From a virus (Duplodnaviria; Heunggongvirae; Uroviricota; Caudoviricetes): a stretch of DNA of 64,000 nt. Shown piece by piece: positions 6,001 to 9,000 of this stretch. Where the stretch lies: IMG/VR virus record IMGVR_UViG_2529293141_000015, positions 1,630 through 65,629 of that record; one strand, 5' to 3'. Position numbers: made by a program. Numbering within the stretch: the stretch's first letter is position 1; the number at the start of each line of letters is the position of its first letter.

Positions 6001-9000
6001 TTCCGTTTTCTCCCCGCGAATCATGGCATCGAAGTATTCACCTTTGACGGCAAGTTGCAGGTTAGCCACGGTTAACCTCCTGCGGCGGTTCTGGTAGCGG
6101 CATCCAGTGAGTTACGTCATCCAAGATATATCCTGATAAATACGTGAAAGCTCTATATTTTTTGTAATCAATTGGATTTACAACCCAGTTCCAATATGCG
6201 GCCACGATTTCACCTTGACTAAATGCCAGTAACATTTTGGTGTCTTCCGGCATTCGATCACTACAGCTTATCCAACCATCCGGAGTTACCGGATGGGGTC
6301 CAGCGAACTCGGGAATGTCAGGACCTTTTCTGATAGCTTTAGCCAGATCCAGCGGGTCATCGTAAAGCCAGTCGCCAGTTTGTGGGTGATTTGCTTCTGC
6401 AAGCTGCGCAGCCCATTCAAGACCATCTTTTTGACCTTGGAGATAATCAAGCGGCAACTCTTCATGCTTACTTGCAGGTTCGGCACAATGCAGCATGGCA
6501 GCGCGGTGACACCAGATAATCCAGCCAAGCGCCATATCCCATGCCATGTATTCTCTATCGCCATTTTTTGCCCTACGGCGATCTACAGATTCCCCGAAAC
6601 GCTTCTCCATAAATAATTCATAGGCTGCTCGTTCATCCGATACTGCTGCCAGTGATGCCAGTGCAATTCGTGCCAGTTCCCTAAGATTTTCGCTATATGG
6701 TGAAGTATTATCACGATTGATTACGTGATTAGCTGTATCTATGAGAACTTGCTTTTGTTCTTCTCTGTTCATAGTGGTCATCTCACTCTCCTTTGATGCG
6801 AATGTTTACAGCCTGGCAAGCTTCTTCGAGTACCCAGTCAACAGCGTCTTTCCACGCACCAGTCCCAACTGACGGATTCTCATTTTTTACCTGCTCATAA
6901 AAACGCACCGCTTTAATCAGTCCTTCAGGTACTACTGGCGATGGCTGTTTAGCTTCTAAATCAGCAATTCTGTCCACCACGGCATCTACTGCATCTGAAA
7001 AACCGAACCAGTTACTCCACTCAGGCCTATCCCCGGTTGCTGCAAAATACATATCAGCTAAAGCAGACTCAGCATGGTCACGCTCGTTAATGAGTTGCTC
7101 TTCGCTTTTCTCCTGTTCGGCTATGCGCTTACTTCCATCCGCGATTACTCCCTCTGAAGTGGTTTACTGAATTTGGCCACCTGAACAGAGGTGATATGCT
7201 CACCTCAGAACAACACAGGTGCCATAATGAAAAAAAGAAATTTCAGCGCAGAGTTTAAACGCGAATCCGCTCAACTGGTCGTTGACCAGAATTACACCGT
7301 GGCAGATGCAGCCAGCGCTATGGATGTCGGCCTTTCCACAATGACGCGATGGGTGAAACAATTACGTGATGAGCGGCAGGGAAAAACACCAAAAGCCTCC
7401 CCCATTACCCCGGAACAAATTGAAATCCGTGAGCTCAGGAAAAAGCTACAACGTATTGAAATGGAAAATGAAATATTAAAAAAGGCTACCGCGCTCTTGA
7501 TGTCAGACTCCCTGAACAGTTCTCGATAATCGGGAAACTCAGGGCGCGTTATCCTGTGGCCACTCTCTGCCATGTGTTCGGGGTCCATCGCAGCAGCTAC
7601 AAATACTGGAAAAACCGTCCTGAAAAGCCAGACGGCAGACGGGCTGTATTACGCAGCCAGGTACTTGAACTGCATGGCATCAGCCACGGCTCTGCCGGAG
7701 CAAGAAGCATCGCCACAATGGCAACCCAGAGAGGCTACCAGATGGGGCGCTGGCTTGCTGGCAGACTCATGAAAGAGCTGGGGCTGGTCAGCTGTCAGCA
7801 GCCGACTTACCGGTATAAACGTGGTGGTCATGAACATGTTGCTATCCCTAACTACCTTGAACGGCAGTTCGCCGTGACCGAGCCAAATCAGGTGTGGTGC
7901 GGTGATGTGACCTATATCTGGACAGGTAAGCGCTGGGCGTACCTCGCCGTTGTTCTCGACCTGTTCGCAAGAAAACCAGTGGGCTGGGCCATGTCGTTCT
8001 CGCCGGACAGCAGGCTTACCATGAAAGCACTGGAAATGGCATGGGAAACCCGTGGTAAGCCCGTCGGGGTGATGTTCCACAGCGATCAAGGCAGTCATTA
8101 TACGAGCAGGCAGTTCCGGCAGTTACTGTGGAGATACCGGATCAGGCAGAGTATGAGTCGGCGTGGAAACTGCTGGGATAACAGCCCAATGGAGCGCTTC
8201 TTCAGGAGTCTGAAGAACGAATGGGTGCCGGCGACGGGCTATGTAAGCTTCAGCGATGCAGCTCACGCAATAACGGACTATATCGTTGGATATTACAGCG
8301 CACTAAGACCGCACGAATATAATGGTGGGTTACCACCAAACGAATCGGAAAATCGATACTGGAAAAAACTCTAACTCGGTGGCCAGTTTTTGTTGACCAC
8401 TTCACTCGTAATACTCACGCTGCTCGTTGAGTTTTGATTTTGCTGCTTCCAACTCATCCAGTAGCGCCAGCACAACCTGAGGTGTGGCTTTCATACGAAA
8501 TGCCAGCAATTTTTGAGGCGTTGCTACTGTTTCAATTGCTACTGCCGCCTCACGCAGTGCCTGGTAATTAATTTCGCTCACTGGTTGCCTCCTTTGCGAA
8601 GCTCAGCGGCGAAAGATGTTGCTGCGGAAGCGATAATTGCATGCCGGTATTCACCATCAGAAAATAAAGAATCTCCCTTAAGTGCATTGACGATACTCTG
8701 ATGATTTTTTGCCAGCATCTCCACGCCCTGCGCCCGTACTTCAGCCAGGCATTTGCGAAACTCGGAAACGTACTGTTCGACGCTCATTCCCCAGCTAAGT
8801 GGACATTCATTGAATGTTTCGCCTTCGTGCTCTTCATCAGGTAGCTCTTTGGTAAAGAACTCACGCTCAATGGCGTGGAGTGTGTCAGCAAAACGACGTA
8901 AGTTACTCAAACCTACCGTAATGGAGAATTCAGGAGCATCACATCCGACGCCCATCTGCTGATAAACTGCTGTTTTGAAGGCCTTCAACTCCGCATTCTC

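Follow-up and report, generated by a model that had tools for sequence, protein, structure and literature searches.

The ea22 gene of bacteriophage lambda is one of the exo-xis genes of the leftward early operon. It is reported to be an early, pL-driven accessory gene that favours lysogeny, and lysogens without it to be induced faster and to produce more phage (PMC7093339, PMC10834534). This pro-lysogenic activity is known solely from deletion experiments in lambda and in Shiga toxin (Stx) phages (PMC7093339), and the function of lambda Ea22 needs more than the isolated parts of the protein (PMC10834534). IS911 of Shigella dysenteriae, studied in the Chandler laboratory, is the model element of the IS3 family of insertion sequences (IS). 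It has 36-bp terminal inverted repeats and encodes a 100-residue OrfA and, via -1 frameshifting, a 382-residue OrfAB; in its circle intermediate 3-4 bp lie between the abutted ends (PMC2909936). Here we consider a stretch of 64,000 nucleotides (the window) from a lambdoid prophage of Escherichia coli, positions 1,630 to 65,629 of the IMG/VR record IMGVR_UViG_2529293141_000015 (Caudoviricetes). In this window a complete IS911-like element, ISEc52, separates two fragments of an ea22-like gene. The best explanation, which we hold with high confidence, is that ISEc52 transposed into codon 59 of an ea22 homologue and truncated its product. The coordinates of all relevant features are given in Table 1.

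The first-pass annotation of the window, made from the sequence alone, had described a 1250-bp IS at 7155-8404 with a CTC duplication, the removal of which would join two minus-strand fragments into one open reading frame (ORF). The element and its duplication are present on re-reading of the sequence. When positions 7155-8407, comprising the IS and one CTC, are removed by a script, a single open minus-strand frame of 181 codons (546 nt) is obtained, which starts with a GTG at 8581 and ends with a TGA at 6783-6785. The joined 546 nt have an uninterrupted, 100% identical match (546/546) in E. coli 2012EL-2448 (NZ_CP027586.1), the lambdoid prophage of which is 93-99.4% identical to most of the window and contains no IS at this site. 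In the blastn comparison with this prophage the alignment breaks exactly between 7154 and 8405, and the two pieces overlap by 3 bp in 2012EL-2448, the overlap being the single CTC of the unoccupied target. The intact ancestral allele is thus present in a related prophage.

The joined gene encodes a member of the Ead/Ea22 family, as had been proposed. The 181-residue protein scores above the Pfam PF13935 cut-off (45.2 bits versus 27, E=1.8e-11), and in a collection of 15 billion proteins it occurs on 276 public contigs under the name 'ead/Ea22-like family protein'. The ORF had initially been taken to comprise about 152 codons from an ATG at 8494. This start has to be abandoned; the 152-residue version is absent from the same collection. 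The GTG codon at 8581 overlaps the TGA stop codon of the upstream gene (GTGA). Full-length variants of 181-182 residues, 91-99% identical, occur without frame disruption on more than 1000 contigs, and this pattern of sequence conservation suggests purifying selection. A separate search of a phage collection with the joined gene returned partial matches only, at 77% coverage or less, and no intact full-length copy.

Lambda Ea22 (NP_040612, 182 residues) is similar to the joined protein at E=2e-19 (BLASTP; 46% identity across 104 alignment columns, 27% of them gaps), and likewise exceeds the PF13935 cut-off. The two proteins have in common the N-terminus MSEIN.QALREAA and a coiled-coil block LE.AKSKLNEQREYYEGVI.DGSKRIA, which is contiguous across the insertion point between E59 and G60. 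The residues on either side of the break (REYYE/GVI.DGSKRIA, with the slash at the break) are invariant in all seven aligned sequences, lambda Ea22 among them. Both genes occupy the same place in the leftward early operon, between exo and xis. On the other hand, the coiled coil of the split gene product is 28 residues shorter, and its C-terminal domain is unrelated in sequence, with no alignment beyond residue 76. The joined protein therefore does not have the lambda-type C-terminal domain, the fold of which was determined by nuclear magnetic resonance (PMC10834534), and a search of PDB sequences with it gave hits at chance level only. Such a C-terminal difference between the Ea22 proteins of lambda and of Stx phages has already been described (PMC10834534, PMC7093339), and variation of this domain among members of the family is known. 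Given the match to the empty site, the 181-residue protein calls, the PF13935 score and the contiguity with lambda Ea22, we consider the fragments on the two sides of the IS to be halves of one ea22 homologue.

The proposed course of events is simple. A single copy-out/paste-in transposition would have placed a functional ISEc52 in codon 59 of the ea22 homologue, within the early-left (exo-xis) region of a lambdoid E. coli prophage that is not an Stx prophage, and repair of the staggered target cut would have produced the 3-bp CTC duplication. In the inserted state the IS begins directly behind codon 59 (GAG, Glu59), and its first three bases there read TGA. Both ends of the element begin with TGA, and at this site the triplet is in frame. 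The first-pass annotation was thus right that the N-terminal codons run into a stop formed by the IS, but their number is 59 rather than 30. Translation from the GTG would end after Glu59 and yield a 59-residue N-terminal stub; the remaining coiled coil and all of the C-terminal domain (122 codons) would go untranslated. The insertion, the duplication, the intact ancestral allele and the family membership are shown by the sequences, while the consequences for function are inferred. The function of the split allele is likely to be lost, since the stub is devoid of most of the coiled coil and of the C-terminal domain, and the isolated parts do not suffice in lambda Ea22 (PMC10834534). The phenotype would probably be mild, because Ea22 has an accessory, pro-lysogenic role and a 255-residue paralogue, itself intact, is encoded immediately upstream; this neighbour may buffer the loss. 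The IS also leaves about 1.6 kb of untranslated RNA before the tightly spaced DUF551 gene downstream, which is probably translationally coupled to ea22 and exposed to polarity. Polarity on the downstream leftward genes (DUF551, the ASCH-domain gene, others, and the excisionase-like gene) is therefore plausible.

The element itself has the complete anatomy of an IS3-family member. Firstly, its length falls in the range of about 1.2-1.5 kb that is usual for the family, and its ends are imperfect repeats of the 5'-TG...CA-3' form. The left end reads TGAAGTGGTTTACTG and the right end is of the CAACCACTTCA type (GTTGACCACTTCA), so that the element has the form TGAAG...CTTCA; 25 of the first 36 positions of the two repeats match, including the first 9. 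Secondly, orfA, encoding a helix-turn-helix regulator, is in phase 0, orfB with its rve catalytic domain is in phase -1, and a slippery heptamer is present. The OrfAB fusion would have 382 residues, and the identical element in the assembly JWSO02 is annotated with a product of just this length. Finally, the target duplications of the two copies present in the window, CTC for copy 1 and GGC for the second copy considered below, are 3 bp long, the usual size in this family, where 4 bp occur sometimes. The element resembles IS911 in its length of 1250 bp, in ends starting with TGAAGTGG, in inverted repeats of about 36 bp, in the sizes of OrfA (100 residues) and OrfAB (382 residues), in the A AAA AAG frameshift site and in the 3-bp target duplication.

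By the ISfinder naming convention, elements with less than 95% nucleotide identity receive different names. Copies labelled 'IS911 family' by the Prokaryotic Genome Annotation Pipeline (PGAP) are 93.9-94.1% identical to the window element over its full length, which would put it just outside IS911 proper, as far as these labelled copies represent the S. dysenteriae reference. In K-12, the curated fragments of IS911A match it at 98.8% and 95.6% identity. Full-length copies that are 100% identical carry the PGAP label 'IS3-like element ISEc52 family transposase', and there is no detectable difference (1250/1250) from the copies in E. coli EH09-18-41, ECOD1, CUPF12 and NCTC9967. Judged by nucleotide identity, the name 'IS911' given initially is right for the group, and ISEc52 of the IS3 group (100%, against about 94%) is the closest named element. 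Exact copies were found in six E. coli records and matches of at least 99% in 942 records, in up to 25 places per genome. ISEc52 is thus abundant and presumably active.

The insertion is not private to one isolate, as it is common to several assemblies. The 59-residue stub is annotated on 6-7 public contigs. Two contigs, JWSO02000007.1 and AFDW01000012.1, are 100% identical to positions 4402-12581 of the window, IS included, and NEMG01000053.1 also runs into the same IS end. At least three assemblies therefore carry the insertion. AFDW01000012.1 comes from EH250, an E. coli strain that makes Shiga toxin (STEC; O118:H12, stx2b, negative for the locus of enterocyte effacement), which is referenced to a paper of 1998 (PMC3491183). 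In contrast to these assemblies, none of 5,426 complete RefSeq E. coli genomes contains the junction at 80% coverage or more in either orientation of the IS. The two 400-nt queries consisted of the 3' (C-terminal) flank of the gene with the IS as in the window, and of a synthetic join of the 5' (N-terminal) flank with the IS in the opposite orientation.

The insertion is young relative to the spread of this type of prophage and has been inherited by several sequenced isolates: its flanks are identical to the empty site (546/546), the IS copies are identical to each other (1250/1250), and no complete genome has the junction. The event had been called datable and apparently recent. It is recent in the relative sense that no decay is seen, but with zero differences to count it yields no date, only a loose upper bound. 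The cryptic prophage CP4-6 of K-12, in which IS911A is split by IS30, is likewise a case of mobile elements in prophage accessory DNA. Unlike in that relic, the IS of the window is intact and its flanks are undecayed, and thus the event is much younger.

Three observations weigh against a single transposition that destroyed a working gene and affected its neighbours. The first concerns the orientation of the IS. A Logan contig (L011, SRR13202286_365) matches the window without a difference as far as this junction, ...GAGTATTACGAG, but continues with the left (IRL) end of the element (TGAAGTGGTTTACTGAATTTGGCCACC), whereas the window and contigs L007-L009 have the right (IRR) end there. The support for this is the last 27 nt of the contig. 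The IS would thus be in the opposite orientation at the same site, and the history would not be one simple event in every lineage. The second is a scan of positions 6000-9500 for terminators, in which terminator-like sites occur at the level of shuffled sequences, and which supports polarity neither way. The third is the PGAP annotation: in 2012EL-2448 and in E2855 the uninterrupted allele carries the flag 'incomplete; missing N-terminus', and in some genomes the annotation covers just the last 139 codons. Given this flag, the functionality of the gene before the insertion is not universally accepted, although other PGAP runs call the full 181 residues.

Recombination between IS copies was considered as the origin of the orientation in L011 and rejected, since a crossover inside the IS never changes the end that abuts a given flank. 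The contig would then require a separate event at the level of the transposase, or a flip at the 9-bp terminal repeats. Another contig (L010, AAYRDD010000031.1 of GCA_016591315.1) ends exactly at the base before the IS junction, and upstream of window position 9335 it has different genes (HAD_PNKP and small ORFs), which points to the same split allele within a prophage mosaic that is assembled in another way. A 99.8% identical ISEc52 is seen in E. coli C25 (NZ_CP127314.1, positions 3370998-3377529; L023), where it interrupts a sister allele from this Ea22 subfamily, though at another codon, the product ending in ...ENPPVETE. This region of C25 contains at least three perfect tandem units of 2595 bp, each consisting of ISEc52, a hypothetical gene, a TraR/DksA gene and the truncated Ea22-like gene. 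The array is either the product of IS-mediated amplification or an artefact of long-read assembly. Together, L011 and C25 hint at recurrence, but chance may equally account for them, so numerous are the genomes, the IS copies and the paralogues of Ea22.

The window contains a second, inverted copy of ISEc52 with its own GGC duplication. It follows a tail-tip fibre gene at a distance of 95 bp, precedes a 46-residue hok/gef gene (ATG at about 50437) by about 110 bp, and probably occupies the hok promoter or leader. The flank immediately before this copy is CCTGAAGGC, which resembles the IS end TGAAG. Among the ten relatives shown with an identical fibre protein, nine have the site empty, as does 2012EL-2448; JWSO02 alone has the IS there. 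The two copies bracket 40.7 kb of the prophage. An inversion of this segment by recombination between the inverted copies was considered and rejected: both copies have retained matching duplications of their own, and the flanking DNA is collinear with that of the relative lacking the IS.

One possibility is that the insertion was not neutral, having been retained in the course of prophage domestication through polarity on the exo-xis block including xis and through copy 2 upstream of hok, the two inverted copies jointly immobilising the prophage, or that codon 59 is a recurrent, preferred target of ISEc52. We consider this unlikely. Its starting point is that the IS separates the early-left genes from the excisionase-like ORF (310-609), which shares their strand, and that the ea22 stop and the ATG of the DUF551 gene are 1 nt apart (TGAGATG). 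No enrichment of terminators was seen, as noted above, and a promoter scan of the same region returned no promoter-like sites. As for a preferred target, the opposite-orientation IS at the same nucleotide in SRR13202286 and the independent truncation in C25 would agree with it, but the former amounts to 27 nt at a contig end, and three hits among so many genomes, IS copies and paralogues may be chance. Carriers are also few, 6-7 contigs as against at least 276 with the intact allele.

It is quite improbable that the gene was already a non-functional mosaic remnant when the IS arrived, so that nothing was inactivated. The PGAP flag in the two genomes would be explained in this way, and the coiled coil, shorter than that of lambda Ea22 by a gap of 28 residues, and the second Ea22 paralogue directly upstream would fit as well. 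However, the gene has a strong start (AAGGAGG-N7-GTG) overlapping the upstream stop codon, its N-terminus MSEIN is the same as in lambda Ea22, and the undisrupted variants of 181-182 residues mentioned above are numerous. Moreover, the 100% identity to 2012EL-2448 extends as far as 8596, a point just upstream of the Shine-Dalgarno box, which is thus included. This boundary is where it would be expected for a whole-gene module, and fits the gene being a mosaic unit of its own. Beyond it the two prophages carry different modules: positions 8597-9341 of the window are occupied by the gene of the 255-residue Ea22 paralogue, and the corresponding region of 2012EL-2448 by a PAPS-reductase-family gene and two small ORFs. 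Because other PGAP runs call all 181 residues, we treat the flag as a homology-heuristic artefact of a mosaic family, and keep the remnant as an alternative of low probability.

That the flanking fragments come from different genes, or that the IS is intergenic and splits nothing, is extremely improbable and already refuted. In its favour, Ea22-family genes are highly mosaic, a separate 89-residue PHROGs family matches residues 93-181 only, and the PGAP annotation of some genomes is confined to the last 139 codons. Against it, the joined frame stays open over 181 codons, its exact product occurs on the 276 contigs, the sequence is unbroken and invariant from E59 to G60 in lambda Ea22 and six relatives, and the empty site is 100% identical. 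An assembly artefact, conceivable for a multi-copy repeat with two identical copies in a 64-kb window, deserves hardly any credence, as each copy has its own perfect 3-bp duplication and matching empty site, the copy 1 junction recurs in three separately deposited assemblies, and JWSO02000007.1 is collinear with the window and has both copies at the identical 38,631-bp spacing.

Upstream of the split gene, on the minus strand, are the genes encoding RecT, the YqaJ/lambda-exonuclease protein, a YfdQ/DUF2303 protein and the 255-residue Ea22 paralogue, the latter similar to the split gene product at E=3e-5 (BLASTP). Downstream are DUF551, the ASCH-domain gene, toxin-antitoxin genes, an MT-A70 methylase gene and the excisionase-like ORF. 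The virion genes are of the short-tailed, N4-gp56-capsid type, as in many Stx phages, and no stx gene was found between the antiterminator and lysis genes of the window.

Table 1. Positions of the split ea22-like gene, the two ISEc52 copies and neighbouring genes in the window
Feature	Position	Strand	Basis
ea22-like gene, 5' fragment: GTG start 8581-8579, 59 codons, then IS-supplied TGA (8404-8402)	8402..8581	-	ORF list
ea22-like gene, 3' fragment: duplicated GAG, 122 further codons, stop; now without start codon	6783..7154	-	
Shine-Dalgarno AAGGAGG, 7 nt (CAACCAG) upstream of GTG	8589..8595	-	sequence reading
Complete ISEc52 (IS911-like, IS3 family), copy 1, 1250 bp	7155..8404	+	ends and length read from sequence
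Left (IRL) and right (IRR) inverted repeats of copy 1	IRL ~7155-7190; IRR ~8369-8404		
Target-site duplication CTC, left copy	7152..7154		sequence reading and empty-site comparison
Target-site duplication CTC, right copy; codon 59 GAG on gene strand	8405..8407		sequence reading and empty-site comparison
orfA, 100 residues, helix-turn-helix regulator	7227..7529	+	ORF list; Pfam HTH_Tnp_1 E=6e-14
-1 frameshift heptamer A AAA AAG	7478-7484	+	sequence reading
orfB frame, -1 relative to orfA, DDE/rve catalytic domain	7484..8374	+	Pfam rve E=1e-31
ISEc52, copy 2, inverted, 1250/1250 identical to copy 1	49077..50326	-	
Target-site duplication GGC of copy 2	49074-49076 and 50327-50329		
Intact upstream paralogue, 255-residue Ead/Ea22-like protein	8578..9345	-	Pfam PF13935 E=3e-15
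Downstream DUF551 gene	6062..6781	-	Pfam DUF551 E=2e-21
YqaJ/lambda-exonuclease gene	11863-12552	-	
Excisionase-like ORF	310-609	-	

Several other features of the window were observed. The interval from the antiterminator to the lysis genes, where Stx phages carry stx, contains a match to the small RNA STnc100 (24683-24896, plus strand, 198 bits); this interval has neither stx nor tRNA genes, unlike its counterpart in 2012EL-2448. Two pairs of isrK and C4 antisense RNAs were found on the minus strand at 3702-3884 and 15096-15283 (Rfam, 53-79 bits), each upstream of an antirepressor-type gene, namely an ORF6N gene (2972-3649) and a Rha-family gene (14394-15179). In the Rfam scan of the whole window there was nothing at or near the insertion, and no Sok-type RNA at the hok locus at the gathering score. 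A LexA-family repressor gene (18311-19024) has directly downstream of it a type II restriction-modification pair (15797-18216, minus strand), which homology to 2012EL-2448 identifies as an Eco57I-type methylase with a BsuBI/PstI-family endonuclease. Finally, an intact ORF of 2806 residues is found at 55398-63818 on the plus strand, and the homologous LPD38-domain gene is annotated as frameshifted in 2012EL-2448.

The case described here is an ordinary, textbook insertion of an IS3-family element into a non-essential accessory gene of a prophage, which is already contained in public assemblies but poorly annotated there, and it has little significance beyond annotation. The split gene would be better annotated as one ea22-family pseudogene interrupted by ISEc52, whereas the public assemblies list a 59-residue 'ead/Ea22-like family protein' next to unannotated DNA. 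Both IS junctions can serve to mark the lineage of those EH250-like strains in which they occur. Should polarity of the IS extend to the excisionase-like gene, the prophage could excise less readily.

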